A stretch of DNA of 64,000 bases from an uncultured bacterium (GTDB lineage Bacteria; UBA8481). Made by a program: the position numbers and the translations under genes. Each line of letters starts with the position of its first letter. Position 1 is the stretch's first letter. Where the stretch lies: the NCBI GenBank assembly GCA_964499705.1, contig CAZCME010000013.1:45217-109216 (forward strand), written 5' to 3'. Below, one piece after another: positions 2,199 to 64,000 of the stretch. Below the pieces are notes generated by a model. It made no database searches, was not told the origin of the DNA, and saw nothing but the letters and a program-made list of their open reading frames with translations.

Positions 2199-2200
2199 GG

Positions 2201-2228: not shown

Positions 2229-2295
2229 GCAATATTGAAGTTCACAATCCTTCCATGGAACTTTCCTTCGCAAAAGCACGTAACTCCTTCTGACA

Positions 2296-2323
2296 CAATG
2301 TTGGAATGTTGGAGAATGTCCCC
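2296..2323 (+). repeat. 28-bp REP-like repeat, copy 2 (CAATGTTGGAATGTTGGAGAATGTCCCC)
   Basis: Exact reverse complement of copy 1; together they form an inverted doublet with a 67-bp spacer (2229..2295). Confidence 0.8.
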
Positions 2324-2433
2324 TGTCTCCACTTCGCGACAGTCTGTTCGGATTCCAACGACACTAAAACTTACATAAACCAAGTTTGACCCATTGAAAT
2401 TACACCATTTGCGCGAATCCCATCCATGGCACA

Positions 2434-2766: not shown

Positions 2767-2807
2767 ATCGCCGGGGGGCGGAGACGTTCTTCGCCTCCCG
2801 CGGTTCC

Positions 2808-3341
2808 TTAGCGCGGTACCATGATGAATGGCAGGTTGCGATAGCGTTCCTGCCAGTCTAGACCGTACCCCACGACGAACTTGTCCTCGATGACGAATCC
2901 CGTGTAGTCCACCTTGACGTCCGTCTTGCGGCGGCTCGGCTTGTCGAGAAGCGAGCAGATCCTGATGGATTCCGGATTTCGGACGGACAGGATCTGCTTC
3001 AGGTAAGACCATGTGAGGCCGGTATCGACCACGTCCTCGACCATGAGAAGATGCCTGTTCTCCAGCGGCACGACGATGTCCTTGATGATCCGGACAACGC
3101 CGGAGGATTTCGTGGAGATGCCATAGGACGAGACGGAAATGAAATCGATCTCGATGGGAAGATGAATTTCGCGGACGAGATCCGCGAGAAAAACCGAGGC
3201 GCCCCTCAAGATGCCGACGACGAGGAGATCCTTGCCGCGGTATTCCTGGGTGATCGTTTCTCCCAACCTCTTGACGGCACCCCTGATCTGATCCTCGGTG
3301 ATGAGGACTTCTCCGATGACGTCATCCGCCCAACTCACCAT
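2808..3341 (-). CDS. hpt: Hypoxanthine phosphoribosyltransferase
   Basis: ORF 2808..3500 trimmed to the internal Met at 3341 (MVSWADDVIGEVLITEDQI...). PRTase motif LLMVEDVVDTGLT and overall Hpt-like sequence; lies downstream of tilS as in many bacteria. Confidence 0.85.
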   Translation of the reverse strand: MVSWADDVIGEVLITEDQIRGAVKRLGETITQEYRGKDLLVVGILRGASVFLADLVREIHLPIEIDFISVSSYGISTKSSGVVRIIKDIVVPLENRHLLMVEDVVDTGLTWSYLKQILSVRNPESIRICSLLDKPSRRKTDVKVDYTGFVIEDKFVVGYGLDWQERYRNLPFIMVPR

Positions 3342-3423
3342 GTTTGTCGCCTCCAGGATTGAAGTATGGAGGATGAAGGGCGACGAAGACAATGCCTCTT
3401 TTCTTCCTTCCAACGTGACTTCA

Positions 3424-4866: not shown

Positions 4867-4943
4867 CCCTGATGATCATATCACGTTCTTTATCGCTCCA
4901 AGTCAACATGGCGCGAGCGCGGAGAATCCCTATAATCGACCCG

Positions 4944-20355: not shown

Positions 20356-20961
20356 ATGACCATCCGTCCTCCCGCCTTCGAACGCCTCGTCGATGCCCTG
20401 TCGAGATTCCCCTCGATCGGCCCCAAGACTGCCGCGCGGATCGCGCTCTGGCTTTTGAACCAGCCGCCGGAAGCCAGCGAGCGGATCGCGCGGGCCATCA
20501 CGGAAGCGCGGCAGACAATCAGAAGATGCAGGATCTGTTTCCAGTACGCGGAGGACGAGCTGTGTCCGGTCTGCGCCGATCCGGCGCGGGACAAATCCAT
20601 TCTTTGCGTCGTGGAGGAAGCCGTGGACGTCTGGAGCTTTGAGCGGACCGGGCGATATCGAGGAACCTACCATGTCCTCGGCGGCGCGATTTCTCCATTG
20701 GACGGAATCGGTCCCGACGAGCTGACAGTCCAGGCTCTCTTGGAACGAGTCGCGGATCCCGCGCAGGGAATAGCGGAAGTCATTCTCGCGACCGATCCCG
20801 ACACGGAGGGCAACGCCACCGCGCTCTTCATCGCAGACCACCTGCCGCGGAGCCGCGTCAAGGTAAGCCGACTCGCGCACGGGCTGCCCGTGGGCGGCGA
20901 ACTAGCCTATTCCGACGATGCGACTCTGGCGGAAGCTCTGGCGGGTCGACGGATTTTATGA
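20356..20961 (+). CDS. recR: Recombination protein RecR
   Basis: 201-aa ORF with C4 zinc finger (CRICFQYAEDELCPVC) and Toprim-like region (LCVVEEAVDVWSFERTGRYRGTYHVLGG); divergent from flgF. Confidence 0.9.
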   Translation: MTIRPPAFERLVDALSRFPSIGPKTAARIALWLLNQPPEASERIARAITEARQTIRRCRICFQYAEDELCPVCADPARDKSILCVVEEAVDVWSFERTGRYRGTYHVLGGAISPLDGIGPDELTVQALLERVADPAQGIAEVILATDPDTEGNATALFIADHLPRSRVKVSRLAHGLPVGGELAYSDDATLAEALAGRRIL

Positions 20962-21142
20962 ATCGACACCGGAAGCGAAACTGGCGGACGCAAGGGCCTG
21001 CGCACTTCTCCCTGGGCCTCTGCACCGAGTGGGCTCGATCTCTTTCGTCCGCAATTTTCATGAGACGAGGAGACACGCGTCTTGTGCGCCGGTTTCACCT
21101 CATATAGGATCGATTCTCGTTCAGCAGGGAGGAAAAAGTAGA

Positions 21143-23584: not shown

Positions 23585-23729
23585 TGGCAGTGAAACTTCT
23601 TACATAACAATTGCGGACCAGATAGATCCTGTATTATACTGGTTTCGGATAAAGGGCATCAGTCGTTACTGACCCTTATCCTTGTTCCAGGATTCCATTG
23701 ACTGTGAACAATATTGCATCGGAGCTGAA

Positions 23730-24788
23730 ATGAAGCGCGTCGAACCCGCCTTGGTCAACGTGAAATTCGCGAAATTCCCGACGCCAACTGCTGCCGTTCT
23801 TGAGCTGACGAACAGATGCAACGAACAATGCATTCACTGCATTCGCGAATCACCCGATCTACGATTCGACGACGAACTTGCGACCGCCGAATGGCTGAAG
23901 GTCGTTGATGATCTTGCGGACATCCGTACTTTTTCCGTATGTCTGACGGGTGGAGAGTGCACGATCCACCCCGGGTTCCTGGAAATCATCGACCGATGCC
24001 GAAGCCATCGCATTAATGTGTCGATAAAGACAAATGCACTTTCGTTGGCGCGAATCGCGCCGATGCTAGCGCGCAAGGGAGTCGGATTCATTGAAATCTC
24101 GCTGTACGGCGCGACACCGGAATCGCACGATCGGTGCACCCGGATTTCCGGTTCATTCCAGCGTCTCGTCGAGGGTGTCAAGGCGGCGAGAAAAAACGGT
24201 ATTCCAGTCTCCATGAACGCGATTGTCTTTCGATGGAATGCTCATGAGGCTCTTGCGATGCGCCGGCTTGGCCAGGAACTGGATTGCCCGATCAAACGCG
24301 ACTTCATGCTCTCGACCACCGATCTTGGCAGGCACCTCGATCTGGAATTGGTGACGTCTGCCCAGATTCGAGAAATCGAGTCGATCTGGCCCATGAACAC
24401 GCTGCCGGGCGCGCAGAACCGTCTTTCCCGGGTAAAAATCTGTACTCAGGGCATGAACACAGTCTGCGTAACCGCGCGTGGCGAAGTACTTTCATGCGTC
24501 ACGATCCGCAAGCCGCTCGGCAACGTCAGAAAAAATGGCCTCGCCGATACCTGGCTCACCACGACGGGAGGTCACAGCGGTGCAGCCCGGCGAGCGCATG
24601 ACGTGGACTACGGGAATTTCACTCGCTGCGAAGCGTGCAAGCATCTTCCGGTCTGCAGCGTCTGCCTGGGACAAAACTTCGCCGCCACCGGCAGCTTTTA
24701 CGAACCTCCCCTTGAAAGATGCTTTATTACCATGTCATTATTCGGTAACAAGGAAGGGATGGAAAATGGAAAGGAAGTCCATGCGTAA
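23730..24788 (+). CDS. Radical SAM enzyme with C-terminal SPASM/twitch-like cysteine cluster (putative peptide maturase)
   Basis: ORF 23682..24788 (TTG) trimmed to ATG 23730 with GGAG upstream. CNEQCIHC (Cx3Cx2C) radical SAM cluster near the N-terminus; C-terminal CEACKHLPVCSVC auxiliary-cluster motif. Confidence 0.8.
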   Translation: MKRVEPALVNVKFAKFPTPTAAVLELTNRCNEQCIHCIRESPDLRFDDELATAEWLKVVDDLADIRTFSVCLTGGECTIHPGFLEIIDRCRSHRINVSIKTNALSLARIAPMLARKGVGFIEISLYGATPESHDRCTRISGSFQRLVEGVKAARKNGIPVSMNAIVFRWNAHEALAMRRLGQELDCPIKRDFMLSTTDLGRHLDLELVTSAQIREIESIWPMNTLPGAQNRLSRVKICTQGMNTVCVTARGEVLSCVTIRKPLGNVRKNGLADTWLTTTGGHSGAARRAHDVDYGNFTRCEACKHLPVCSVCLGQNFAATGSFYEPPLERCFITMSLFGNKEGMENGKEVHA

Positions 24789-24996
24789 GTTATATGAAAA
24801 GCCGGAGCTGATCTGCTACAGCGGAATCAAGGTCGGAGTCTATTCCGTCTCCAACTCCAACGCCAATTGTCAGGCGGATTGCGCCGCCACTGTCTGTTCA
24901 TTTGTCGCGACAGCGTCGGCGGCTCCATGCGACACCTGCGATAACGACAATTCCCAGTGCGCTACCGGCCTGAATCCCGTGGTGGACTGCCTCTAA
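24766..24996 (+). CDS. Cys-rich small peptide, candidate RiPP precursor (76 aa, 8 Cys)
   Basis: ATG 24766 preceded by AAGGAAGGG about 8 nt upstream; overlaps the last 23 nt of the radical SAM gene in another frame. Sequence MERKSMRKLYEKPELICYSGIKVGVYSVSNSNANCQADCAATVCSFVATASAAPCDTCDNDNSQCATGLNPVVDCL. Confidence 0.5.
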   Translation: MERKSMRKLYEKPELICYSGIKVGVYSVSNSNANCQADCAATVCSFVATASAAPCDTCDNDNSQCATGLNPVVDCL

Positions 24997-25045
24997 TCCG
25001 GCGCGCTTTCTTGCGCCTTCCCCACGCCTCCGATAACATCCTCGA

Positions 25046-51612: not shown

Positions 51613-53151
51613 TTGAAAGTACTGCATCGCTCTCTTCCGGCACTTCTTCTTCTCGCGGCGTCATGCACTCCCACGCAACTCGCGATCTACTCCCGGCCGG
51701 GCGGAGCGGAGGTTTACATCGACGACAGGCTGTATGCGCGGACGGTGAACGAAGCGACGCCCGTGACGCTGGAAGTGCGGAGCGGAAAATATGGAGTGAG
51801 CATTCTGAAGGACGGGTATCACCCCTGGGCGCGGACCGTGGACGCCAAGCCCTACTCCGTCACTCCCGTCCTGGCCGACCTGGTCCCGATCGAACCCATC
51901 CGGACCTATGTGCCGATCGGGGCCGTCGAGATCCGCATTCATCCGGCGGGAGCGCGCGCCTGGCTAGACGGACAACTCCTGTCACAGCTACCGGAGAACG
52001 CGGGAGAACCCTTCATCATCGAGGGGTTGACGCCGGAGGCGCACGTCCTCCGGGTCGAACGGCAGGGATACGAGTCGGAGGAAACCCGGTTTGAAATCTT
52101 CTCGCAGCTCGTTTCGAACGTCACCCTGAGGCTGGAGCCTTTGAAGCCGTACTATGTCTACCCTTCGAACGACGATCTCCTGAGGAACGCGGCGGTACGC
52201 GCGCTTCGGGGAATCGCTCATCTGCCCGGGATGCGTTCCACGAAGACGATCGGCCTTGTGAGCCTTGACGGGGAAGCGGACGAACTGGACGGGCTCCGGC
52301 CGCTCGTGGAGGACGTGATGATCGCGGAGCTCGCCCGCAACGGCCGGGGCGTGGTCGAAAGGGAGAATCATCTCCTCGTGCGCCTCGCGCAGGAATCGGC
52401 GCGTTCCGATTCCTTCTCGCTCGAAGTGCTCACGAAGCACGGCGGGCCCGACCGGCCGTTCCTGTATGACGCGCGCCTCAAGTCAGCCGCGGACGCGATC
52501 GCGATGCTGGCGACGGACACGGCGGGGCGGGCGCGGCAGATCATCGTCCGCAATCGCGTCGAAGAACCGCTCGCGCATCTGAAGACCGCGGACCAGATCA
52601 TCGGCTATCGCATCGTGGAACGTTCGCTGCGATCCGATCCGATCGACGATCCCGGCTCGCCCGAGCCGATGATCCGGCGCGAAGCGATCATCCGCCTCTT
52701 CATCCGCTTCCTCGACGCGAAAACCGGAATTGTGCAATGGGCGGAACGTTTCGAGGCGTCAGTCGCGGACCGTGTGCCGCAGCGTGTGTACCGCTGGCTC
52801 GAGCATCCGCCCTCGCGCACGTACGCCTACGAGATGAAGCAGAAGCCCGGAAGGGACGCGCGCGAATCCCGGGATACCGCGGCGGCATCGCCCCCGATCG
52901 AATATTTCACCGAGGACGACCTGGGCGGCATCGGCGACCAGGATATCCTCTTCTGGTACTGGCGGAACATGGGCGAAGCCTATCTCCGTGCCGGCCGCTT
53001 CGGCGACGCCGCGCGCCACCTGCGGGAGGCCGTGGCGATCCGGCCGCTGGACTACGAATCAAGGATGCTCTACGCCGAATCGCTCCTGAAGAACGGTCAA
53101 TTGAACGAGGCGGGCCGTGAATACATCCAGGCCATGCGACGCATGGAATGA
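51613..53151 (+). CDS. PEGA-domain lipoprotein, paralog 2, with C-terminal TPR-like tail
   Basis: Track ORF 51571..53151 overlaps paralog 1; in-frame TTG at 51613 gives lipoprotein N-terminus LKVLHRSLPALLLLAASCTPTQLA. Shares CTPT(R/Q)LA, PEGA modules and HGGPDRPFLYDA with paralog 1. Confidence 0.6.
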   Translation: MKVLHRSLPALLLLAASCTPTQLAIYSRPGGAEVYIDDRLYARTVNEATPVTLEVRSGKYGVSILKDGYHPWARTVDAKPYSVTPVLADLVPIEPIRTYVPIGAVEIRIHPAGARAWLDGQLLSQLPENAGEPFIIEGLTPEAHVLRVERQGYESEETRFEIFSQLVSNVTLRLEPLKPYYVYPSNDDLLRNAAVRALRGIAHLPGMRSTKTIGLVSLDGEADELDGLRPLVEDVMIAELARNGRGVVERENHLLVRLAQESARSDSFSLEVLTKHGGPDRPFLYDARLKSAADAIAMLATDTAGRARQIIVRNRVEEPLAHLKTADQIIGYRIVERSLRSDPIDDPGSPEPMIRREAIIRLFIRFLDAKTGIVQWAERFEASVADRVPQRVYRWLEHPPSRTYAYEMKQKPGRDARESRDTAAASPPIEYFTEDDLGGIGDQDILFWYWRNMGEAYLRAGRFGDAARHLREAVAIRPLDYESRMLYAESLLKNGQLNEAGREYIQAMRRME

Positions 53152-53162
53152 AATCCACGCAA

Positions 53163-53194
53163 CCAAATCCCAAATCCCAAATCCCGAATCCCAA
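53163..53194. repeat. Tandem heptanucleotide repeat (CCAAATC, ~4.5 copies, one variant)
   Basis: CCAAATC CCAAATC CCAAATC CCGAATC CCAA in the intergenic region; an inverted complement TTGGGATTTGGATT occurs at 53267..53280 abutting the HD-GYP gene start. Confidence 0.7.
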
Positions 53195-53257
53195 CTTCTC
53201 CATACGGAAGCGGAAACGGGCCGGGCAATCTTCCTGCCTTGATGGTCGGAAACGGAA

Positions 53258-54427
53258 ATGTGTATTTTGGGATTTGGATTAATGTACACAGTCGAAGTGC
53301 GCGACGCGAAGGCGGGCATGACGCTCTCGCGGCCGGTCTTCACCCGGAACGGAAACCTGCTCCTCGATGCCGGCACCCGCCTCTCCGATCATACCCTCGA
53401 CCTGCTCGATCTCTGGGGCATCTTCGACATCCAGGTCGATTCGATCGACTCGCCTTCCGGTCACGCGCCCGCTCCCCGGCAGAAGAAAAAGTTCGATCCT
53501 GTGAAGCGCGAGGCCGAGAAGAAGCGAGTGGAGGATGTGGGCGGCTGGGTGCGCGATGAGATCGAGGGTCTCATGAAGCAGATGAATTCCGGGGGAAGGG
53601 ACATCGACATGGAGCGGCTCAAGGGAGTCGCGGAGTCGATCGTGGAGGAATCCATGAAGGACAACGAGCTGATGGTCTCCCTGACGACGCTCATGGACTT
53701 CGACAGCTATCTCTTCTCGCACGCCGTCCACGTCTCGATTCTCTCCGTCGTGATCGGCATCGCGATGGGCCTCACGCAGAAGGAAATCCAATCGCTGGCC
53801 ATCGGAGGAGCGCTCATCGATCTCGGAATGCTTAAGGTGGACCGGAAAATATGGGATAAGGACGGCGTCCTGTCGGAAGCCGAGTTCAACTTCGTGAAAC
53901 AGCATCCGCTCCTGGGATTGAAGGACGCCGAGCCGCACTGCCGGGGCGATGTGGCTTCTCTCCGGATCATCGCGGAGCATCACGAGCGGCTGGACGGATC
54001 GGGCTATCCCCGGAAGCTGCGGGACAAGGCGATTCATCCTCTGGCGAAGATCGTCGCCGTCTGCGACATCTATGACGCGATGCAGCAGCCCCGCGCCTAC
54101 AGGAAGAAGTGGCTCCCCTACCAGGTCATGGGCCATCTGCTCGTCTCGTCCACGGAGACCCTGGACGCGCAGGTTGTGAAGACTTTTCTCCGCACGATGT
54201 CCGCGTATCCCATCGGATCGTTCGTGAAGATGGATACCGGCCAGGTCGGCGTCGTCGTCTCCTCCAATCCCGCCAGCCCGATCCGACCTGTCGTGAAGCT
54301 CTTCCTGCTGGCTTCGGGAGAGACCATGGAGAAGCCGGAATTCGCGGATCTTTCCGCCGATAAGAGATTCATCATCGGACCGATCGATCCCCGCCAGATC
54401 CACGTCAAACCCTTCGATGTTTTCTAA
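53258..54427 (+). CDS. HD-GYP domain phosphodiesterase (c-di-GMP-type)
   Basis: HD motif (HAVHVS) and EHHERLDGSGYPRKL GYP signature. Alternative start at Met 53282 (MYTVEVRD...) would place the inverted heptamer segment in the 5' leader. Confidence 0.8.
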   Translation: MCILGFGLMYTVEVRDAKAGMTLSRPVFTRNGNLLLDAGTRLSDHTLDLLDLWGIFDIQVDSIDSPSGHAPAPRQKKKFDPVKREAEKKRVEDVGGWVRDEIEGLMKQMNSGGRDIDMERLKGVAESIVEESMKDNELMVSLTTLMDFDSYLFSHAVHVSILSVVIGIAMGLTQKEIQSLAIGGALIDLGMLKVDRKIWDKDGVLSEAEFNFVKQHPLLGLKDAEPHCRGDVASLRIIAEHHERLDGSGYPRKLRDKAIHPLAKIVAVCDIYDAMQQPRAYRKKWLPYQVMGHLLVSSTETLDAQVVKTFLRTMSAYPIGSFVKMDTGQVGVVVSSNPASPIRPVVKLFLLASGETMEKPEFADLSADKRFIIGPIDPRQIHVKPFDVF

Positions 54428-54439
54428 AGCGACGACGGG

Positions 54440-55966
54440 ATGAATTCTCATTCCGGGATCGCGCGGTGCCGGACCGCGGTCCTGTCCGGGATAGACGCTC
54501 TTCCGGTGGATGTGGAAGTGGATATCGGGCGCGGATTGCCGGGCCTCAAGTGCGTCGGGTTGCCGGGCGCCAGCGTGAAGGAATCGGAGGAGCGGGTCAA
54601 ATCGGCGATCCGGAAATCGGGCTTCGACTGGACGAGGAAGCGGATCACGGTCAATCTCGCGCCCGCCGACCTGCGAAAGGAAGGCTCCGGTCTCGACCTC
54701 CCCATCGCCCTCGGAATTCTCGCCGCTTCCGGAGCGCTGCCTCACGAAGCGCTGGAAGGATGGATGGTCCTCGGGGAATTATCGCTGGACGGCCAGCTCC
54801 GCCCGGTCCGCGGCGCCTTGAATTTCGCGATGCTGGCCCGCCGCTCGGGCGTCAGGCGATTGCTGGTTCCGCAGGAAAATGTCGCGGAAGCCTCGCTCTG
54901 CCATGACGTGGATGTCCACTCCGCGCGGAATCTTGCTGAAGCGGCTGCGCTGTTGCCGGCCCCCGGTGCTGTTCCACCTCGTGCGCCCGCGTCGGCGATT
55001 CCGGAAAGCGACCTGGACTTCGCGGATGTCCGCGGACTTTCGACACCGCGCCGGGCCGCGCTTGTCGCCGCGGCGGGCGGCCACAATATTCTCATGATCG
55101 GGCCGCCCGGTTCCGGGAAGACGATGATCGCGCGACGCTTTCCGACGATCCTGCCGGCGCTGGAATTCGACGACGCCCTGGAGATGCTCCGGATCCATTC
55201 CGCGGTCGGCCTGACCCTGAACGGCACGCTCCCGTCGATTCCTCCATTCCGCGCCCCCCACCATACGACCTCCGCGGTCGGCATGATCGGCGGCGGCCAT
55301 CCGATGCGGCCCGGCGAAGTGTCGCTGGCGCACCGTGGCATTCTCTTCCTGGACGAGCTGCCGGAATTCCGCCGCGATCTCCTGGAGTCGCTGCGTCAGC
55401 CGATCGAGGACGGGCACGTCACGGTGACGCGTGCGTCGGGATCGGCGAATTTCCCCGCGAAGTTCATGCTCGTCGCCGCCATGAATCCCTGCCCCTGCGG
55501 CCAGCTCGGCTCGGACATCCCGTGCGAATGCGCGCCGTCGCAAGTCGGCAAGTACATGCGCCGCATCTCCGGTCCGCTCCTGGACCGCATCGATATCCAC
55601 CTGGAGGTTCCGCGCCGGCCGTACCGCGAGACATCCGCGAACGCGCCCGGCGAAACATCCGCTTCGCTGCGGCAGCGGGTGACCGAGGCGAGAACGCGCC
55701 AGAATCTGAGATATGCGAAGGCTCGATATCGCACCAACGCGCAGGTTTCCGCGAAGGCGTTTCGGCAGTCCTTCGAAGCGGAGGAGGCCGCGCACGAACT
55801 GCTGCGGGAATCGGTCGACGGGCTCGGATTGTCCGCGCGCGCCGCGGAGAAGGTGGAGCGCCTGGCGCGGACCGTCGCGGACCTGGCGGGGCGGGACCTG
55901 GTCACGGAAGACGATGTCGCCGAAGCGGTCGGCTACAGGACGCTCGACAGGCGTTGCCGCGCATGA
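54440..55966 (+). CDS. comM: YifB/ComM-family Mg-chelatase-like AAA+ ATPase
   Basis: N-terminal Lon-protease-like domain, Walker A MIGPPGSGKTMIA, Walker B ILFLDELPEF, and Cys cluster NPCPCGQLGSDIPCEC typical of the family. Confidence 0.85.
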   Translation: MNSHSGIARCRTAVLSGIDALPVDVEVDIGRGLPGLKCVGLPGASVKESEERVKSAIRKSGFDWTRKRITVNLAPADLRKEGSGLDLPIALGILAASGALPHEALEGWMVLGELSLDGQLRPVRGALNFAMLARRSGVRRLLVPQENVAEASLCHDVDVHSARNLAEAAALLPAPGAVPPRAPASAIPESDLDFADVRGLSTPRRAALVAAAGGHNILMIGPPGSGKTMIARRFPTILPALEFDDALEMLRIHSAVGLTLNGTLPSIPPFRAPHHTTSAVGMIGGGHPMRPGEVSLAHRGILFLDELPEFRRDLLESLRQPIEDGHVTVTRASGSANFPAKFMLVAAMNPCPCGQLGSDIPCECAPSQVGKYMRRISGPLLDRIDIHLEVPRRPYRETSANAPGETSASLRQRVTEARTRQNLRYAKARYRTNAQVSAKAFRQSFEAEEAAHELLRESVDGLGLSARAAEKVERLARTVADLAGRDLVTEDDVAEAVGYRTLDRRCRA

Positions 55967-57933
55967 AGAAGGAGGATATTCGAAACCAGCTGCGAGGATT
56001 GCAGGCTCTGCAGGGGCTCGCGCCGTCGTTCCTCGACGAGATCGCGGAACTGGGGGTGGAAAGAACATACGCGCGCGATTCGATCGTCATATCCGAAGGG
56101 CAGGTCGTGGAACATTTCTTCGTGATACTCGGAGGACGGCTGCTGGCTCACTATGGCGACAAGGTTGTTTCGCACATGGAGCGAGGCGACACGTTCGGCC
56201 AGCTGAGCCTGATGGCGGAAGTGCCGTCGCTCGTCACCGTGAAGGTGCGGCACGACGCGCGGCTCCTGCACGTTCCGCGCAATCTCTTCCGGAAAGCGCT
56301 GGCATCGAGCCCGGAGTTCGCGGCGCAGATCTTCAAGGGTTCCGCCGCGCGCCTCGCGACGATCAACCAGGAGACGAGGACGCGCCAGCCCGTCATCGTC
56401 GCCGTGCATTCGGCGCCCGCGGGAGTCGGCAAGACGAAGTTCGCCATCAACCTGGCGTGCGCCATGGCCGCGGAAAATGCCGGCCGCGTGCTTCTTGTCG
56501 ATGTCGCCACGGAGAAAAAGCGCTTCATCGACATCTTCGGTTTCGGAGGATCTCTGCCTCTTGTCGATCTGCGGGACATCGAGACATCGAGCCGGGACGC
56601 GGTGCGGGAAAAAACGCGAAAGCACGATGCCGGGTTCGAGATACTCCGCCTGGCCCATCGCGGGAGCTCCGCGAGCGCGGACCAGACGCGCGAGGACGAG
56701 GCGGTCGCGCCGCTGCTTTCATCGCTGTCCCGGACATTCCATTACATCGTGACCGATCTGCCTCCGGTCATGGACGCGACCGTCTGGAAATTCCTGACGC
56801 ACGCCGATACCGCGATCATCCTGACGTCGGCCGAGCCGGTCCATCTCGCGCAAACAGCCAATCTCCTCGGAAAGCTGCCCGGCAAGGCCAGGGTCCTTGT
56901 GACGCGGGCCACGACCGAGCTCGAAGCCAAACGAGAAACGATCGACACCGCGCTCGGACAGCGCGTGGACGAATTCCTCGAGGAGCTCCCGGAAGGCGAT
57001 GAAATCGCTTTCATCTCCCGCCCGGGATCCCGCTACGCCTCGGCGGTACGCCGCCTCGCTCGCGGCATCCTCGGCCGGCTCGTGGGCCTGGCGCTCTCCG
57101 GAGGCGCCGCGAGAGGGATGGCTCACATCGGCGTCCTGAAGGTGCTGGAAGAGGAAGGCATCCGGCCCGATATCATCGCCGGAACTTCGATGGGGGCCCT
57201 GATCGGCGGGATGTGGGCGTCCGGGAGCAACGCGGCCGTATTGGAAAGGATCGCGCGGAGGATCCGACGGAGCGAGTTCTTCAGCATCTTCGACCTGGCC
57301 CTGCCGCCTTCGTCAGGGCTCCTTCGCGGCACCAAGGTCGATCACTTCATCCGCGGCGTCTTCGGCCAGAAGCGCTTCTGCGACCTTCTGATTCCGCTCC
57401 GGGTCATCGCCACCGACATCGACACGGGAGATCACGTCGTCTTCGATCACGGTTCCGTGGCCGACGCCGTCCGGTCTTCCGTGGCCATCCCCGGAATCCT
57501 GAAGCCGAACATCGTCGACGGCAGGCGCCTGACGGACGGCGCCGTCATCGCTCCCGTTCCCGTCGATACGCTGCGGGAGGCGGGCGTGTCCCGGATCATC
57601 GCCGTCAACGCGATTCCCACCGCCGAATGCTTCCGCGATTACAGCCGTTCGGCGATCCAGCCCGCGGCGGGACGGAGCGATTTTCTCGCGCGCCTCTTCC
57701 ATTTCAGCACCCGCGACGTGCCAAGCCTTCTCGATATCATCGTCCGCTCGAACCAGTTCATGGAGGCGGCGATCGCGGAACATTCCTGCCAGGGCGCCTC
57801 GGTCATCATCCGCCCGTGGCTCCCGGAACTGCACTGGATGGATTTCGACTCCGCGCCGCGCTTCATCGAGTCCGGCGTCAAGGCCGCCAGGGAGGCGATG
57901 CCGGAGATCAGGGAGATGATGAATGGGGGATAA
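55963..57933 (+). CDS. Three-domain fusion: cNMP-binding domain / ParA-MinD-like P-loop domain / patatin-like phospholipase
   Basis: ATG 55963 overlaps the comM stop (ATGA); the upstream part of track ORF 55522..57933 is out of frame. cNMP-binding (ISEGQVVEHFFVILGGRL...GDTFGQLSLM); P-loop AVHSAPAGVGKTKFAINLA with Walker B IVTDLPP; patatin motifs SGGAARG, GTSMG, TDGAV. Confidence 0.75.
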   Translation: MKKEDIRNQLRGLQALQGLAPSFLDEIAELGVERTYARDSIVISEGQVVEHFFVILGGRLLAHYGDKVVSHMERGDTFGQLSLMAEVPSLVTVKVRHDARLLHVPRNLFRKALASSPEFAAQIFKGSAARLATINQETRTRQPVIVAVHSAPAGVGKTKFAINLACAMAAENAGRVLLVDVATEKKRFIDIFGFGGSLPLVDLRDIETSSRDAVREKTRKHDAGFEILRLAHRGSSASADQTREDEAVAPLLSSLSRTFHYIVTDLPPVMDATVWKFLTHADTAIILTSAEPVHLAQTANLLGKLPGKARVLVTRATTELEAKRETIDTALGQRVDEFLEELPEGDEIAFISRPGSRYASAVRRLARGILGRLVGLALSGGAARGMAHIGVLKVLEEEGIRPDIIAGTSMGALIGGMWASGSNAAVLERIARRIRRSEFFSIFDLALPPSSGLLRGTKVDHFIRGVFGQKRFCDLLIPLRVIATDIDTGDHVVFDHGSVADAVRSSVAIPGILKPNIVDGRRLTDGAVIAPVPVDTLREAGVSRIIAVNAIPTAECFRDYSRSAIQPAAGRSDFLARLFHFSTRDVPSLLDIIVRSNQFMEAAIAEHSCQGASVIIRPWLPELHWMDFDSAPRFIESGVKAAREAMPEIREMMNGG

Positions 57934-58018
57934 ATACGAAGACACGAAGTTTGATATTCAACACAATTCTTTTGCTTTTCTCTTCGCGTCCTGGTGTCTT
58001 CGTGGTTAAATCCCACTC

Positions 58019-59506
58019 ATGATCTCCAACTGGAGCCGATTCACGGCGTGGCCGGCGCGCGAAATGAAGCGCCTCCAGGACCGGCTCCTCGTGGATTTCC
58101 TTCGCGAAGACCTCGTCCCGTTTTCCTCCTACTACGCGAAGCTTTTCGACGAGCAGGATATCGACGTGGATGAGATCAACGCGGTGTCCGACCTCGCGGG
58201 TCTTCCCTTCACGACGAAGTCGGATCTCATCGCGGCATTGGACGAAGATCCGCTCGCCTTCGTCCTCCGGCCGACCGCGGACCTGATCCGGGCTCACTGG
58301 CCCCTTGCGAGAAAGTTACCGCTCCTGGCGCGGAAGCTCTTCAAGGGCGAAGCCGATGTGAAGCGCGTCCTGGAGAAGGAATACCTGCCGATCTTCATGA
58401 CGGCAACGACGGGACGCGCGGCGAAACCCGTGTCGTTTCTTTACACGCGAGCGGACATGTATCGACTTCGCACGGCGGGGCGTCGCACCGCTGATGTCAT
58501 TGGCCTGACATCCGCGGATCGCTGCATCAACCTCTTCCCTTATGCTCCGCATCTCGCCTTCTGGCAGGTCGCCTTCGCGGGTTTCGAATCGGGCATCTTC
58601 ATGCTCTCCACGGGCGGCGGGAAGACCATCGGCACGGCGGGAAATATCCGCGCGATGGAAAAAGTGAAGCCCACGTGCCTCCTCGGCGTCCCGAGCTACG
58701 TGTATCACATCCTCCGATGCGCGGAGAAGGAAGGATTGAAGCTGTCGTCGATCAACACGATCGTGCTGGGCGCCGAAAAGGTGCCGCCCGGCCTGAAGGA
58801 ACGTCTCTCCGACCTGGTCGTTCGCCTGGGAGGAAAGCCGCCGCGCGTCGTGGGGACATATGGATTCACCGAAGCCAAGATGGCGTGGTCGGAATGCGAT
58901 GGCGGCACCCAGGGCAGGGAAAGTTCCGGTTACCATCTCTATCCCGACATGGAAATCATCGAGATCGTCGAACCGGAAACAGGCCGCGTCGTCGGCGAAG
59001 GCGAAAGCGGCGAGATCGTCTACACGTCGCTCGATGGGCGCGGCACGGCCGTGCTGCGGTATCGAACGGGAGACTACTGCGAGGGCGGAATCACGTATGG
59101 CCCGTGTCCTCATTGCGGCAAGACCCTTCCCCGTCTCTCCTCGAACATCACGCGTCTTTCGAACGTGAAGGATGTCAGCCTCACCAAGGTCAAGGGCACG
59201 CTCGTCGATCTGAATCACATCGCCTCGCTCCTGTCGGACGCAAGCGAGATCGAGGAGTGGCAGCTTGAGATATCGAAACTGAATGACGATCCGTCCGAGG
59301 TGGACGTCATGACGCTCTCCTTCACGCCCGTCGCGGGAGCGCGGATCGAGCCGAAGGAAATCTCCCGCAGGATCTTTGACGCCACGGAAGTGGCCTTGAA
59401 CAAGGTCGAAGTCCTGGCGCTTCCGGAGATGGTCGCGAAGCTGGGGCTCGAAACCGAATTGAAGGAGAAACGAATCATCGACCGCAGAGCGGAAGCGAAG
59501 AAGTAG
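58019..59506 (+). CDS. Phenylacetate-CoA ligase-like adenylate-forming enzyme (PaaK / F390 synthetase family)
   Basis: 495-aa ORF; N-terminal LAGLPFTTKSDL motif, TTGRAAKPV (AMP-binding P-loop-like), and C-terminal domain typical of PaaK-like ligases. Confidence 0.7.
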   Translation: MISNWSRFTAWPAREMKRLQDRLLVDFLREDLVPFSSYYAKLFDEQDIDVDEINAVSDLAGLPFTTKSDLIAALDEDPLAFVLRPTADLIRAHWPLARKLPLLARKLFKGEADVKRVLEKEYLPIFMTATTGRAAKPVSFLYTRADMYRLRTAGRRTADVIGLTSADRCINLFPYAPHLAFWQVAFAGFESGIFMLSTGGGKTIGTAGNIRAMEKVKPTCLLGVPSYVYHILRCAEKEGLKLSSINTIVLGAEKVPPGLKERLSDLVVRLGGKPPRVVGTYGFTEAKMAWSECDGGTQGRESSGYHLYPDMEIIEIVEPETGRVVGEGESGEIVYTSLDGRGTAVLRYRTGDYCEGGITYGPCPHCGKTLPRLSSNITRLSNVKDVSLTKVKGTLVDLNHIASLLSDASEIEEWQLEISKLNDDPSEVDVMTLSFTPVAGARIEPKEISRRIFDATEVALNKVEVLALPEMVAKLGLETELKEKRIIDRRAEAKK

Positions 59507-59523
59507 GAACTACGCGGCTTCCT

Positions 59524-60057
59524 TCAAATTCCGCCCTCTTCGACCCGATCGAGCTTCTGAACGGTTCCATCCGGAGCCGAAATCTCGAAAGGAAACCAGA
59601 GATCGCGCGAGTCGTCGTCCATGCGACACGAGAGCTCCTCGATTCCGCCCCCGACATCCGTGACGCGAATTTTCACATCGGCATCGAGATCCTTCGACGG
59701 ACCGGGAGCCCAGTATCGGACGGCGACGCGCCAGGAACCTGTTTCGCGGGCCGGAACGAAGCGGAGTTCCTCGTCGCCGGAGAGTCCGGAGACACGCTCG
59801 GTCGCGGCGGTTTTTTTCGCGAGCACGCGCACGTTGGAATCGCCGGATGATGCGGCCATCTGCCAGAGCTCGACATCGAGGTCGGCATCATTATCCCAGG
59901 AGAGCCGGATCAGTACTCCCTGCTGTTGCGGCTCGCCACAACCCAGGATGGTCGCCGCGACAAAAAGCGCGGTAGCCAGAACCTTGACGAAGCCGGCGTG
60001 CCCGCGTACGATTTCAGAGGAAATGAATTTGTCCGGCCGCATCATCCCGGCCATCAT
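59524..60057 (-). CDS. Hypothetical lipoprotein
   Basis: 177-aa ORF; lipobox-like LFVAATILGCGEP; rest hydrophilic, no motif. Confidence 0.5.
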   Translation of the reverse strand: MMAGMMRPDKFISSEIVRGHAGFVKVLATALFVAATILGCGEPQQQGVLIRLSWDNDADLDVELWQMAASSGDSNVRVLAKKTAATERVSGLSGDEELRFVPARETGSWRVAVRYWAPGPSKDLDADVKIRVTDVGGGIEELSCRMDDDSRDLWFPFEISAPDGTVQKLDRVEEGGI

Positions 60058-60092
60058 ATTCCAAAACCGGTTATCTGATATTCGAATTCACC

Positions 60093-60165
60093 GGGCGCGT
60101 AACTCAGCGGCTAGAGTGCCACCTTCACACGGTGGAAGTCGCAGGTTCAATCCCTGCCGCGCCCA
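60093..60165 (+). tRNA. tRNA-Val (anticodon CAC)
   Basis: 73-nt cloverleaf folded by hand: acceptor GGGCGCG/CGCGCCC, D-stem ACTC/GAGT, anticodon stem CCACC/GGTGG with loop TTCACAC (anticodon CAC), T-stem GCAGG/CCTGC with loop TTCAATC, discriminator A; CCA not encoded. Confidence 0.85.
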
Positions 60166-60266
60166 GGATCAGCGGCTGCCATCCATCAGCGGGAGGAAAT
60201 TCGTGTGAATCGGAAGCGCGAAGATTTTTCAGAATATCGGCCCATCGCTCGCGACTTCATGGTGCC

Positions 60267-60791
60267 ATGACGACCACCCCCATCAACAATCTCGCTGCCG
60301 TCCCCTTCCTGGCGCTCCTGGACGACAACGAATGCCGGGCTCTGGGAGCGCGCCTGCAATCCAAATCCTATCAAGCCGGCGAGGAAATATTCGCGCAGGG
60401 GCAGCCGGGGGATTCGTTCTACATCGTGAAAAGCGGTCGCGTGAAGATCTTCATCGAGAGCGGGGACGGAGAAGAGATCGTCTTGACGGAGAGCAAGGCG
60501 GGCGACGCGTTCGGCGAAATCTCGCTCTTCGACGGAGGTCCGCGCACCGCCACCGCCGTCGCCGCATCGCAGGCCGAATTGCTCTGGCTCGATCGAGGAC
60601 GCCTCCTCGATTTTCTCTCCGACTTCCCGCATGCCGCGCTCGACCTCATGGCGTTCATGGGTCGCAGGCTTCGCGAGACGGACGAATTGCTCCGCGTCAT
60701 CATCGCCCGCAAGCCCGAGAGCAAGGCGGCCGAAGAAAACTCCACCTTCGATCAGATCTCCAGGAGCATCAGGAAGTTCCTGTCGGCCTGA
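60267..60791 (+). CDS. Stand-alone cyclic-nucleotide-binding domain protein (Crp-like effector domain, no obvious HTH)
   Basis: ORF 60132..60791 trimmed to Met 60267 (MTTTPINNLAAVPFLALL...); motifs GDSFYIVKSGRVKIF and AGDAFGEISLFDGGPRTATAVA; C-terminus too short for a Crp-type DNA-binding domain. Confidence 0.7.
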   Translation: MTTTPINNLAAVPFLALLDDNECRALGARLQSKSYQAGEEIFAQGQPGDSFYIVKSGRVKIFIESGDGEEIVLTESKAGDAFGEISLFDGGPRTATAVAASQAELLWLDRGRLLDFLSDFPHAALDLMAFMGRRLRETDELLRVIIARKPESKAAEENSTFDQISRSIRKFLSA

Positions 60792-60838
60792 TGCGCGCCA
60801 TGGACGAAGCCGCGGCCGTGCGATAACCTCCGTCGCGG

Positions 60839-63800
60839 ATGGCCTCCAAGGGAACCAAGGGTAAGGAAGCGAAAAAGAGCTCCGCCGCGTCCAAGCGCCT
60901 GCGTGCTCTTCTGTGGGGTTTCCTCATCGGCATCCTCGTCTGCGCTTTCACGCTGGCCGTCGGTACGACGAATTTCGCGAAGAAGACGGAGCTGATCACG
61001 CTCGATCTCCGCTATCGCCAGAGGCCTCCCGTACGTTTTCATCCCGATGTCGGATATATCGACTTCGACGACTCTTCCATCGCGCTCTTCGGCCGCTGGG
61101 TCTGGCCGCGACACCGGATGGTGGCGCTCGTTCGAACGCTCGATCGATACGACGCGCGCGCGGCCGGATACGACGTCTTCTTCACGGAAAAAAACGACGT
61201 TGTCCTGGCCACGGACCGGCTCGCGAGAGAATCCTCCGACACGGGCACCGCGCCTCCTCCCGTGGAGAAGGTCACGGCGGCCTTCCGGGACTACGACATG
61301 GAATTCGAGGAGGCGATCCGCGACGCGGGCAACATGTATCTGGGCCAGTTCATGCCTCAGCCCGACGCGGAAATGGCCGCGGGAAGCCCGACGGAGAGAC
61401 GGGCCAAGATCCAGAACTACATCGACTCCCAGTTCATGCCCACGCGCACGCCGGATCAACTGGCGGCGCTCGTGGTGGCCGAGCAATTCGCCGTCGACGC
61501 CGATTCCGCGATGGACGAGCATCTCTACAAGGCCATCGGCATCACGACGGTGCTGCCCGAACTCTCTCTCGCCGCGGCGGGCGTGGGCTACGCCCAGATC
61601 ATCGAGGATCTCGATCCCGCCGTCCGACTGTATCCCCTCTTCATGTATTTCAACCGAAAGGCCTACCCTTCCATCGCCGTCGTCATGCTCTGCCGGCTCC
61701 TCGATGTGCCGGTGCAGAACATCCGCATCGTGCCGGGCGAGTTCATCGAGTTCCCGAACGCGCTGACCGAGCCTCCGGACCAGTCGGTGCTCGCCGATCC
61801 GGAACACCCCGTCCGGAAGGAAGCGCCCCGCGGGACGATTCGCATCCCCGTGGATCAGCATGGCCAGATGCTCGTCAACTGGGCGGGCTCCTTCATGGAA
61901 CGGGGCCTCCATATATCTTTTCGCAGCATATCAGCCTTCCATGCGCTCGCGCGCTCCAAGGAGATCGCCGGGCGCTACGCCCCCGTGCCCGACTCCTATG
62001 CGCCACTCCGTGACGAAATCTGGACGGCCATCAGCGAGGACAAGCTGGTGACGGACGAGGAAGGCAGGAGACTAGCCGAGGAGATCGCTCTGGCTCACGT
62101 CGTGGAGCCGATGCTGGACGCGGGCGTTTCGCCGGTGGACGCATGGACGACGGTGACATCGGGCCCGGAGCCCATCTGCCCGCCCGAGCCGAACTTGAAG
62201 GACGTCATCACCGCGCTCGACGTCGCTCATCGCGCCCGGGACGGGCAGGACACGACCAGCCCCCTCGGCGAAACCTGGAATCGGGAGATCAGCCGCAACA
62301 TCGCCTTCTTCGCGAAACGCGATCGCCTCCAGGAAGTATCGCCTCTTTATTTTCCACGGCCCTCCTCCGCCATGTGGGACGGAGAGATGAAGGAATTCTC
62401 GCCGGTCGACCTGGAAAACAAGATGCTCATGATCGGACTGACCGGGATCGGCACGATCGATCTGAACCCGATGCCATTCGAGCGCGCCTGTCCGATGGTG
62501 GCGCTGCACACCAACGCCCTGAACACGATTCTCACGAAGCAGTTCCTCCAGTTCCCCGAAAAATCCGACCGTTACATCGCCGTGCTCATCCTGGGGCTGG
62601 GCGCGTCCCTTCTCTGCGCTTTCCTCTCGCCCTCGCAGGCCTTCCTGCTCTGCCTCGCCATGGGAGGCGGCTACACATGGCAGGTCTGGTCCTACTGGCG
62701 CAACGACGGCCGCTGGGTCCCGCTCGTGGAGCCGCTCCTTGCGCTTTCGCTCACCTACGTCATCCACGTCGTCATCGAATTCATCCGCGCGCTCCGCGCC
62801 AAGCAGCAGATCCGCGGCCTCTTCTCGACGATGGTCTCCCCGAACGTCCTGAAGCTCATGGAGCAGAATCCGGACAAGTTCTCCCTGACCGGCGAACGAA
62901 AGCCCGGCACGATGTTCTTCTCCGGGATCGAGGGATTCGGCAAGGTGACGCAGGGTGTCGCTCCGGAGGATCTCTCCGCGATCCTCGGCATGTATCTCAC
63001 GCCGACGAGCGAGATCATCATGGATTACGACGGTTACATCGACAAGTACGAGGGCCATATCATCATGGCCGATTTCGGAGTTCCGCTGGACGATCCGGGC
63101 CACCCGTGGAAGTGCTGCTACTCCGCGATCGAGCAGCAGCAGGATATCGAGGCCTTCCGCGTCTTCGTCGCGGCGCGCTACGGCGAGGACGTCACGGTCG
63201 CCATGGGAATCAACAGCGGTTACGTCTCCGCGGGGAACATGGGCTCGGAGAAAAAAATGCAGTACACTGTGATGGGCGACGCCGTGAACGTGTCGGCCCG
63301 GTTCCGTCCCGCGAACATCATCTACAACACGGGAGTCATCACCGGCGAAGCCACGGAACCGCTCATTCGCGACACGGTCGAGCTCCGCATGCTCGACAAG
63401 CTCCTCCTGAAAGGCAAGACCAAGCCCACGACCATCTATGAAGTGATGGGGTGGAAGGAAGAGAGCTATCTGAAGACGAAGGCGGGAAAACCCGTGCCGC
63501 CGTCGCTCTTTGTCCGCTGGCGAACCTGCCCGCCGGAGAAGGTCTTCGGATATATCCTCTTCTGGCGCAGGCGTGAAAAGGACCACGGAGTCGCTCTCTG
63601 CGGCGAGATCGCGGCGTTCTTCGAATCGGTGGTCCCGATCGCGGAAGAGATCATGATCCACTCCGCGACGCTCTCCATCAGCTCCCTGGATGCCGCCATC
63701 AACCGCGTCGAGGACGCCGTCAGGAGCATCGCTCCGGAATCCTGGTCCACGCCGGATGTTCCGCCGCGACAGGAAGGCGATCCGACATGGATGCAGAAGC

Positions 63801-64000
63801 TCCATCACTGGGCCATCCGCGTGGAGGCGATGGACAAGGTGCTGCACGACGCGCATCACCGCGGAGCCACCTCGCCGGACGGCGTGCCCGCGGTCGTGGA
63901 GCTTTTGATGCAGACCGTCTCTCTCGCCGGCAAGATCCAGCGGCTCCGCGAAAACCTGCCCAGGCAGTCCCGGCTCGGCATCGCCTCCATCAACCGCGCG
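60839..64000 (+). CDS. CHASE2 sensor domain-containing class III adenylate/guanylate cyclase, partial (3' end beyond window)
   Basis: Frame open from ATG 60839 to the window end (no such ORF in the track, consistent with no stop in the window). My translation: MASKGTKGK..., CHASE2-like ITLDLRYRQRPP...YIDFDDSSIALFGRWVWPRHRMVALVRTLDRYDARAAGYDVFF, TM helices, then cyclase domain MFFSGIEGFGKV...MADFGVPLDDPGH...YTVMGDAVNVSARF. Confidence 0.75.
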   Translation, partial: MASKGTKGKEAKKSSAASKRLRALLWGFLIGILVCAFTLAVGTTNFAKKTELITLDLRYRQRPPVRFHPDVGYIDFDDSSIALFGRWVWPRHRMVALVRTLDRYDARAAGYDVFFTEKNDVVLATDRLARESSDTGTAPPPVEKVTAAFRDYDMEFEEAIRDAGNMYLGQFMPQPDAEMAAGSPTERRAKIQNYIDSQFMPTRTPDQLAALVVAEQFAVDADSAMDEHLYKAIGITTVLPELSLAAAGVGYAQIIEDLDPAVRLYPLFMYFNRKAYPSIAVVMLCRLLDVPVQNIRIVPGEFIEFPNALTEPPDQSVLADPEHPVRKEAPRGTIRIPVDQHGQMLVNWAGSFMERGLHISFRSISAFHALARSKEIAGRYAPVPDSYAPLRDEIWTAISEDKLVTDEEGRRLAEEIALAHVVEPMLDAGVSPVDAWTTVTSGPEPICPPEPNLKDVITALDVAHRARDGQDTTSPLGETWNREISRNIAFFAKRDRLQEVSPLYFPRPSSAMWDGEMKEFSPVDLENKMLMIGLTGIGTIDLNPMPFERACPMVALHTNALNTILTKQFLQFPEKSDRYIAVLILGLGASLLCAFLSPSQAFLLCLAMGGGYTWQVWSYWRNDGRWVPLVEPLLALSLTYVIHVVIEFIRALRAKQQIRGLFSTMVSPNVLKLMEQNPDKFSLTGERKPGTMFFSGIEGFGKVTQGVAPEDLSAILGMYLTPTSEIIMDYDGYIDKYEGHIIMADFGVPLDDPGHPWKCCYSAIEQQQDIEAFRVFVAARYGEDVTVAMGINSGYVSAGNMGSEKKMQYTVMGDAVNVSARFRPANIIYNTGVITGEATEPLIRDTVELRMLDKLLLKGKTKPTTIYEVMGWKEESYLKTKAGKPVPPSLFVRWRTCPPEKVFGYILFWRRREKDHGVALCGEIAAFFESVVPIAEEIMIHSATLSISSLDAAINRVEDAVRSIAPESWSTPDVPPRQEGDPTWMQKLHHWAIRVEAMDKVLHDAHHRGATSPDGVPAVVELLMQTVSLAGKIQRLRENLPRQSRLGIASINRA

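Follow-up and report, generated by a model that had tools for sequence, protein, structure and literature searches.

Class III nucleotidyl cyclases are head-to-tail dimers in which each site combines the metal-binding aspartate (Asp) pair of one chain with the Lys, Thr (or Asp), Asn and Arg residues of the other (PMC9552081, PMC4821796). Reviews describe the bacterial members as homodimers with two equivalent sites, and see an asymmetric layout with one site as having developed in eukaryotes (PMC9552081, PMC4821796). In the transmembrane adenylyl cyclases (tmACs, halves C1 and C2) and in soluble guanylyl cyclase (sGC, subunits alpha and beta), one half provides the two metal-binding Asp and the other the purine-recognizing pair together with Asn and Arg; a single active site is accompanied by a degenerate pseudo-symmetric pocket, which binds forskolin in tmACs. 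Here we analyse a cyclase gene, cycA, located at the end of a 64,000-nucleotide stretch of DNA from an uncultured bacterium (the whole stretch is referred to as the window), together with its partner gene cycB, which starts shortly after the window ends. Comparison of their sequences indicates that the two proteins probably form an obligate heterodimeric adenylate cyclase with complementary half-sites and one active site, arranged like the eukaryotic enzymes.

The proteins encoded in this DNA are named as those of Candidatus Hydrogenedentota by NCBI, and matching contigs (L001 and L002; L numbers designate loci and contigs) come from the Hainich groundwater metagenome. An earlier note on the window had reported a CHASE2-sensor cyclase with a long C-terminal extension continuing past the last position, and had proposed to complete the gene beyond it. 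Both suggestions proved sound. The extension is entirely helical, with a short TPR-like unit at its end, and following it outwards gave the complete cycA, read on L001 and L002, and the partner cycB, read on metagenome contig L001, which are the main result of this work. CycB is a second CHASE2 and Guanylate_cyc gene encoding 1168 aa; it starts about 381 nt past the end of the window and overlaps the cycA stop codon by 4 nt. The two products are paralogous membrane proteins with an overall identity of about 27%. The cyclase homology domain (PF00211) is on record for both, CHASE2 (PF05226) is recognized in cycB with an E-value of 1e-31, and no NCBIfam model matches either protein. Each consists of an N-terminal transmembrane (TM) helix, a CHASE2 region of about 530 aa, a TM bundle, a class IIIb cyclase domain and a helical tail of about 300 aa, so that CHASE2 lies between the N-terminal helix and the C-terminal TM bundle in both. 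Hydropathy places the helices of cycA at aa 23-41 (TM1) and 579-646 (TM helices 2-4), and those of cycB at aa 23-41, 555-573 and 597-615. We know of no ligand for CHASE2 domains.

Catalytic residues were mapped by alignment to the solved Pseudomonas aeruginosa CyaB (3r5g), which together with Cya2 (2w01) is the best PDB relative of cycA and cycB. Where CyaB reads FFSDIRGFT and KFVGDCVMV, cycA reads FFSGIEGFG and KYEGHIIMA, with Gly696 (62924-62926) in place of the first metal-binding Asp (Asp1) and His740 (63056-63058) in place of the second (Asp2). Lys736 (63044-63046) is retained, and the motif YTVMGDAVNVSARF holds Thr810 (63266-63268), Asn817 (63287-63289) and Arg821 (63299-63301), the last two being supplied by GDAVNVSARF. 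The pattern in cycB is complementary: both metal-binding Asp are kept (Asp673 and Asp717, in FSSDVSGFT and KYEGDAIKA), as is Lys713, but in GEQVTLAEEL the transition-state Asn and Arg are replaced by Thr794 and Glu798. Neither polypeptide combines two Asp, Asn and Arg, and the complete set is found only across both. The cyclase had been cast in the earlier note as the producer of a signal; cycA cannot be a stand-alone producer because both of its metal-binding Asp are gone. Since the half-sites are complementary, an A-B heterodimer would contain exactly one complete site and one degenerate site, and A-A or B-B homodimers would contain no complete site.

This division of residues is a property of a whole family. 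A homology search with cycA returned about a dozen full-length relatives, all of them lacking the Asp pair, with an invariant YEGH and with Asn and Arg kept. The family alignment was then scanned against one genome per GTDB species, yielding 71 loci, from which residues were extracted after tblastn. A full-length A orthologue is present in 39 loci, and a B orthologue lies directly downstream in 36 of them, the order being always A then B. None of the 39 A orthologues has either Asp: Asp1 is replaced by G, A, S, M, K, L or W, and Asp2 by His (32/39) or else by A, V, T or N. Lys, Thr, Asn and Arg are kept in all 39, and the class IIIb pair of Lys and Thr (K736 and T810) is thus invariant. Conversely, every one of the 36 B orthologues keeps both Asp and Lys, has T, A, S, H or R at the Asn position, and has Glu at the Arg position within an invariant AEEL; the second substrate-defining position is T, S or C. 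FSSDVSGFT is found in 34 of the 36; in each of the two remaining sequences a single residue has changed, and it is not the Asp. The remaining 31 loci (L044-L074) are shorter single genes that match the TM-plus-cyclase part only, and all six canonical residues are present in 31/31. The metagenome-assembled genomes (MAGs) bearing the pair are labelled Hydrogenedentota, Lindowbacteria, Nitrospirota/Nitrospirae (several of them magnetotactic candidates), Thermodesulfovibrionales, Syntrophales, Planctomycetota and, in one case, 'Dependentiae', a spread of at least five phyla. In L020 the cycA orthologue (2138-5958) is split over two frames at about 4612-4717, by a frameshift or an assembly error, and the downstream cycB is intact.

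The stop of A and the start of B overlap by 4 nt at 12 of the 36 loci, and the spacing is between -4 and +37 nt at 33 of them; the fixed A-B order and the overlap suggest translational coupling. In a neighbour-joining tree of the catalytic domains (midpoint-rooted, no bootstrap support), A, B and canonical sequences are each monophyletic, and A and B group together. A-A and B-B distances are correlated (r = 0.84, 34 loci). A clade of four loci (L035, L036, L039 and L040) has lost the His of A (V, A, A and T, respectively), and it is only in this clade that the Asn position of B is occupied by His or Arg, a covariation that would fit compensation between the subunits, as would be expected of two positions that face each other in the degenerate pocket. 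Furthermore, cycA was used in an exhaustive phmmer search of 1.84 billion cluster representatives, and among its 150 best matches were 23 A-type, 28 B-type and 96 canonical sequences and one other. The near-equal numbers of A and B types, with no intermediates, appear consistent with obligate pairing.

Each of the two proteins lacks residues that are essential in every characterized class III cyclase, and degenerate, non-catalytic cyclase-homology domains are known elsewhere. It could be argued on these grounds that cycA and cycB are catalytically dead CHASE2 receptors or scaffolds, or homodimers with a non-canonical activity. We consider this improbable, given that the two sets of losses complement each other exactly and never coincide in 75 proteins, and that the retained residues (FSSDVSGFT in B; Lys, Thr, Asn and Arg in A) are invariant, which would not be expected of dead domains. 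The fixed gene order, the overlap and the similar numbers of A- and B-type clusters also speak against it, as does the finding that engineered equivalents complement each other. Indeed, the D300A and R376A variants of Mycobacterium tuberculosis Rv1625c have no activity on their own, and a dimer of the two is active through one site (PMC4821796). The natural replacements Asp2 to His in cycA and Arg to Glu in cycB affect the same two positions. The Rv1625c pair, however, is a laboratory construct of one gene, whereas the split between cycA and cycB is natural and ancient, and has become fixed in a pair of diverged paralogues with different sensors.

In the heterodimeric cyclase that we favour, cycA and cycB would be made in equal amounts from their overlapping genes and would assemble head-to-tail as an obligate heterodimer. 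A single site converting ATP to cAMP would be formed by Asp673 and Asp717 of cycB with Lys736, Thr810, Asn817 and Arg821 of cycA. The second pocket, in which His740 of cycA would stand opposite Glu798 of cycB, would be conserved and non-catalytic and could bind a regulator, and two different CHASE2 domains would gate the one active site. Several points weigh against this proposal. Heterodimerization is deduced here from sequence, and the identity of the product leans on the class IIIb Lys/Thr rule, a rule that is not absolute. The sequence of cycB, a gene beyond the window, is taken from L001, where cycA differs from that of the window in at least one residue. The tree is midpoint-rooted and carries no bootstrap support, and the covariation between subunits represents one evolutionary event. 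In addition, the A gene of L022 (10001-13330) has no B within 10 kb downstream, and that of L024 (5492-8881) has no adjoining B, the B of the same MAG being on another contig (L043, 1-1917). These two loci may have unlinked or lost partners. In the A protein of L022, Asp2 is replaced by Asn and not by His.

The cycA/cycB pair resembles tmAC C1/C2 and sGC alpha/beta in the way the catalytic residues are shared out between the halves and in the presence of one predicted active site and one degenerate pocket. PDB matches run in the same direction: cycB matches VC1 and sGC alpha, cycA matches the C2 region of AC5, and sGC beta is matched by both. As in sGC, the halves are encoded by two separate genes, whereas in tmACs they form one fused chain. 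Unlike either eukaryotic system, each protein has its own extracytoplasmic CHASE2 sensor, and the catalytic domains are class IIIb-like (Lys/Thr, nearest to P. aeruginosa CyaB) and not class IIIa. The A/B duplication is best read as an independent bacterial event, A and B clustering apart from the canonical bacterial relatives. Homodimeric CHASE2 cyclases (Synechocystis Cya2, PDB 2w01; L044-L074) share the succession of TM helix, CHASE2, TM bundle and class III domain, with a catalytic-domain identity of 32-60%. In contrast to cycA and cycB, they are single genes with six catalytic residues per chain and two sites, and they lack the helical insert of about 230 aa that precedes the C-terminal TPR-like unit.

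No natural bacterial pair of complementary class III cyclases was found in the searchable literature, which omits most subscription reviews (e.g. Linder & Schultz, Bassler et al. 2018). GcyB/GcyC of R. centenum were considered as a bacterial multi-subunit precedent and rejected, as they are described as hypothetical or as 'non-catalytic subunits' and not as complementary class III halves. A more far-reaching proposal is that the pair represents a conserved and undescribed prokaryotic heterodimer, encoded by two overlapping genes in at least five phyla, in which the His/Glu pocket would serve as an allosteric site and the two CHASE2 domains would make a two-input (coincidence or ratio) sensor, an independent invention of eukaryote-type asymmetry; we regard the case for this whole as evenly balanced. 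If true, it would provide a natural counter-example to the homodimer-only view of bacterial class III cyclases, and a model for the evolution of asymmetric cyclases by duplication and reciprocal loss, for the role of the degenerate pocket and for the action of two extracellular sensors on one catalytic site. There is also a consequence for annotation. Both genes are labelled merely 'CHASE2 domain-containing protein' or 'adenylate/guanylate cyclase', and counts of cyclase genes would overstate, for Nitrospirota, Hydrogenedentota and relatives, how many independent sources of cAMP there are.

Between a tRNA-Val gene and cycA, 47 nt upstream of the latter and on the same strand, lies a gene for a small cyclic-nucleotide-binding (CNB) protein. 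Its pocket is canonical: FGEISLFDGGPRTATA aligns with IGELGLFEEGQERSAW of Escherichia coli CRP (FGE...PRTATA vs IGE...ERSAW), and the protein thereby carries the ligand-competent signature Gly-Glu ... Arg-Thr/Ser. The earlier note had correctly described it as lacking a DNA-binding domain. The NCBI label 'Crp/Fnr family transcriptional regulator' is unsupported because the protein has no helix-turn-helix (HTH) or other DNA-binding domain. Its nearest relatives, more than 100 clusters with proteins of about 285 aa, are 45-59% identical over the CNB domain and linker and have the same GE...RTA pocket; they carry an additional DUF1003 (PF06210) membrane domain, the whole of which is gone from the small protein. 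It is thus a CNB-only truncation of a family of CNB+DUF1003 membrane proteins. The CNB+DUF1003 architecture (PF00027 + PF06210) is widespread and uncharacterized, and resembles membrane effectors gated by cyclic nucleoside monophosphates (cNMPs).

This protein might bind the cAMP that the pair would make, and it had been proposed as the receptor of the cyclase. The pocket and the position next to cycA agree with that proposal, as does purifying selection; its wider validity does not hold, since among about 39 cyclase loci just the window genome and the sister strain L079 have the gene beside cycA. Between these strains cycA is 97% identical and the small CNB protein 88%, and the ratios of non-synonymous to synonymous substitution rates (dN/dS) are 0.07 and 0.21, respectively, so that the small CNB gene is maintained but less constrained than cycA. 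A circuit reduced to this protein and the cycA/cycB pair, with the CNB protein as a co-transcribed cAMP buffer or feedback regulator, is a tentative possibility that we rate as somewhat less probable than its absence. The shared strand, the short gap, the pocket, the substitution pattern and the layout kept in L079 are in its favour, and no terminator-like site lies between the two genes (a promoter and terminator scan of 53000-61200 gave counts no higher than in shuffled sequence and is uninformative on operon boundaries). Against it, the layout is limited to two closely related strains and the gene is absent from three other Hydrogenedentota loci with tRNA-Val, cycA and cycB; moreover, the truncated protein has no output domain and evolves faster than cycA. 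The neighbourhood of tRNA genes is a common site of recent insertions, and the location of the gene could mirror such an event and not a function, which also weakens the link to this protein within the heterodimer proposal. It is plausible that the small CNB protein is a lineage-specific, and not a conserved, local receptor for the predicted product of cycA/cycB.

The wider cNMP/cyclase region covers positions 53258-64000+ (Table 1). Genes were called from plausible open reading frames (ORFs) scanned against Pfam with gathering scores as cut-off; the G+C content of the window is about 61%, and raw ORF lists are therefore crowded with shadow frames. Four genes of cyclic-nucleotide type, encoding an HD-GYP-type protein, a CNB/patatin fusion, the small CNB protein and cycA, all lie on the plus strand and score above the gathering cut-offs. 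The content listed in the earlier note is thereby confirmed by Pfam, save that a P-loop domain in the fusion had been overlooked. Three further genes (ComM, an AMP-binding ligase and a lipoprotein), which the note had not listed, are interspersed, and an Rfam scan of the whole window matched the tRNA-Val alone.

Table 1. Features of the cNMP/cyclase region, in window coordinates.
Feature	Positions	Strand	Basis
HD_5 (HD-GYP-type) protein, 389 aa	53258..54427	+	Pfam HD_5 E 3e-21; also HD
ComM/YifB-type Mg-chelatase-like AAA+ protein, 508 aa	54440..55966	+	Pfam ChlI, Mg_chelatase, Mg_chelatase_C
cNMP_binding + AAA_31 (ParA/MinD-type P-loop) + Patatin fusion, 656 aa	55963..57933	+	Patatin E 5e-34, cNMP_binding E 6e-12
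AMP-binding acyl/aryl-CoA ligase (PaaK/FlxY-like), 495 aa	58019..59506	+	Pfam AMP-binding
Predicted lipoprotein, 177 aa, family unassigned	59524..60057	-	Signal peptide + 'ILGC' lipobox
tRNA-Val (anticodon CAC)	60093..60165	+	ARAGORN; Rfam 66.6 bits
Stand-alone cNMP-binding protein, 174 aa, without HTH	60267..60791	+	Pfam cNMP_binding E 2e-26
cycA, CHASE2 class III cyclase, 1181 aa (aa 1-1054 in window)	60839..64000+	+	CHASE2 E 6e-35 to 8e-35, Guanylate_cyc E 3.9e-11
cycA metal-Asp positions, both substituted	62924..63058	+	CyaB 3r5g alignment
cycA retained substrate/transition-state residues	63266..63301	+	Alignment; invariant in A family
cycA C-terminal extension, aa 868-1181	63440..64000+	+	Runs ~384 nt past window

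The presence of four such domain types within 11 kb on one strand invites the idea of a full circuit, in which the CHASE2 cyclase would make a nucleotide, the small CNB protein would receive it, the CNB/patatin fusion would act as effector and the HD-GYP protein would degrade the signal. The pocket of the small CNB protein, the CNB-cycA layout under purifying selection in the sister strain and the canonical cNMP pockets (GE...R[TSN]) of distant relatives of the fusion (P0141-P0158) all lend it some credit. The genes, however, are not co-conserved: at the 39 orthologous cyclase loci none of the HD_5, ComM, fusion or AMP-binding ligase genes recurs beside the pair, an outcome that the earlier note had itself named as refuting the model. 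The fusion block and the pair are separated in two further genomes of Hydrogenedentota, by about 75 kb and on opposite strands in one, and with the pair about 14.5 kb upstream in the other (calculated from the ranges that L004 and L076 span on their contigs), and in the window itself a minus-strand gene and a tRNA gene separate the two halves. Taken with the state of cycA, which by itself has no metal ligands, and with the properties of the fusion and the HD_5 protein set out below, this makes a full circuit unlikely. The 11-kb stretch is not a single signalling unit; it consists of two independently conserved modules side by side, with one lineage-specific gene between them. Module 1 (53258-59506) is a syntenic block of Hydrogenedentota with the HD_5 gene, ComM, the fusion with its altered CNB domain, P-loop and patatin domain, and the acyl-CoA ligase, and module 2 (59524 to beyond the end of the window) comprises the divergent lipoprotein gene, tRNA-Val, cycA and cycB. 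The case is a caution for neighbourhood-based inference, as the four cyclic-nucleotide-flavoured domains have come together by the chance adjacency of two operons, one for lipid catabolism and one for the cyclases.

The gene order in L075 and L076, which are from two other Hydrogenedentota genomes, is L20, PheS, PheT, ZapA, PEGA, PEGA/TPR, HD_5, ComM, fusion and AMP-binding ligase, and the window has the identical order. The block continues in L075 and L076 into thiolase, FadB-like and acyl-CoA dehydrogenase genes, and not into cyclases. ComM holds the same position in both and is a syntenic neighbour without a cyclic-nucleotide link; its stop codon is overlapped by 4 nt by the start of the fusion in the window. 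The AMP-binding ligase, for which NCBIfam FlxY and PaaK matches are below the cut-offs, is conserved 3' of the fusion (L075, L076 and L080), and beta-oxidation genes are found 3' of the fusion in four relatives (L075, L076, L080 and L081). Two of these, L080 and L081, represent a homologue from Lindowbacteria (50% identity) and a homologue with 36% identity, both followed by beta-oxidation genes.

The fusion has about 45 full-length homologues. Its patatin motifs are intact, as read in the translation: GGAARG (SGGAARG) for the oxyanion motif GGxRG, GTSMG for the nucleophile motif GxSxG, and DGA (TDGAV) for the catalytic DGA/G. The phosphate-binding cassette of the CNB-like domain, FGQLSLMAEVPSLVTV, has GQ..PS instead of GE..R[TS], so that Gln stands for Glu and Ser for Arg, and the ligand-competent signature found in the small CNB protein is absent. 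The 12 closest homologues (P0115-P0126) likewise read GQ..PS, and P0114-P0126 as a group show this type of loss. The best NCBIfam match is RssA, and JGI labels the homologues 'NTE family protein'. The fusion is similar to the neuropathy target esterase (NTE)- and RssA-type CNB-patatin proteins in having an N-terminal cNMP-binding-like domain followed by a patatin domain with its three motifs, and differs from them in the inserted ParA/MinD-like P-loop, in the degenerate pocket and in the location of its gene inside a beta-oxidation operon. The assignment of the fusion as effector in the earlier note did not survive the loss of these two cassette residues and the recurrence of beta-oxidation partners in four relatives. 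Most likely, to judge from these patterns, it belongs to lipid catabolism (fatty-acid activation and beta-oxidation), with an N-terminal domain predicted to be devoid of canonical cNMP binding. The P-loop occupies aa 136-340, between the CNB-like and patatin domains, and its Walker A motif APAGVGKT is without the Lys that characterizes deviant Walker A motifs. The CNB-like/P-loop/patatin architecture occurs in the roughly 45 homologues, with beta-oxidation genes nearby in all those examined, and to our knowledge has no characterized example.

The closest PDB relatives of the HD_5 protein are a 3'3'-cGAMP phosphodiesterase and c-di-GMP HD-GYP enzymes. It keeps the HHExxDGxGYP motif as HHERLDGSGYP (EHHERLDGSGYP), but aligned with the cGAMP phosphodiesterase 5z7c its HD dyad is Ile-Asp and not His-Asp (ALIDLGM vs LLHDIGK), and it therefore lacks the dyad His required in HD-GYP phosphodiesterases. 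The L075 and L076 orthologues have Leu-Asp and Val-Asp at the dyad. Substrates of the HD-GYP family are c-di-GMP or 3'3'-cGAMP, and neither cAMP nor cGMP nor other products of class III cyclases. There is thus no ground to place the HD_5 protein in a class III cyclase pathway. Throughout this orthologue group (window 53258-54427; L075 7329-8474; L076 7085-8278) the dyad His is consistently replaced by a hydrophobic residue (I, L or V) with GYP intact, and the gene adjoins ComM in all three genomes. The group may consist of non-catalytic receptors or of enzymes with an altered metal stoichiometry.

A cyclase accompanied by a CNB or patatin effector also recalls the anti-phage Pycsar and CBASS systems. 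PADLOC indeed gives weak domain matches (PycC-cyclase, 1e-16 to 1e-19; PycTIR-CNB, about 1e-8 to 1e-10; CBASS phospholipase-patatin, about 1e-7), and there is a match to the NCBIfam model CBASS_lipase, with 25 bits against a cut-off of 200. These matches are confined to shared domains and fall far under the family cut-offs. The cyclases are CHASE2 membrane sensors of 1,170 aa with purine-type Lys/Thr, the 36 loci show no conserved effector beside the pair, the small CNB protein is without a killing domain, and the fusion sits in a beta-oxidation operon within housekeeping synteny (L20-PheST-ZapA...). A defence system of this kind is very improbable, and membership in Pycsar or CBASS was rejected, the PADLOC and NCBIfam matches being at domain level only.

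In module 2, the lipoprotein gene is divergent to tRNA-Val and the cyclase pair, and its 177-aa product has no Pfam, NCBIfam or PADLOC match. The arrangement of lipoprotein (minus strand), tRNA-Val(cac), cycA and cycB recurs in Hydrogenedentota (the window, L004, L015 and L078), and tRNA-Val is found upstream of cycA in L004, L015, L078 and L079. The lipoprotein orthologues directly upstream of tRNA-Val-cycA-cycB are at 3935-4399 (L004), 5315-5752 (L015) and 9093-9422 (L078). Being periplasmic and encoded beside two CHASE2 sensors, the lipoprotein could be an accessory or ligand-presenting partner. On the source contigs, cycB is followed by genes for an M20 peptidase and then an OTCase. All-against-all clustering of the flanking ORFs of 40 pair-bearing loci gave no further family in more than 14 of the 40; the commonest cluster (14/40) is a generic histidine kinase/response regulator, and the others are lineage-specific housekeeping genes.

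Elsewhere in the window, a low-GC island at 20918-25000 (about 0.50, against about 0.61 elsewhere) contains a gene for an 888-aa secreted repeat protein followed by one for a 368-aa radical-SAM-like protein with CxxxCxxC and a C-terminal Cys cluster. A possible short Cys-rich peptide, MERKSMRKLYEKPELICYSG...CDTCDNDNSQCATGLNPVVDCL, is encoded just 3' of the latter gene. The genes of the island possibly resemble a precursor and maturase pair of the RiPP type (peptides made on the ribosome and modified after translation), and may have been acquired horizontally.

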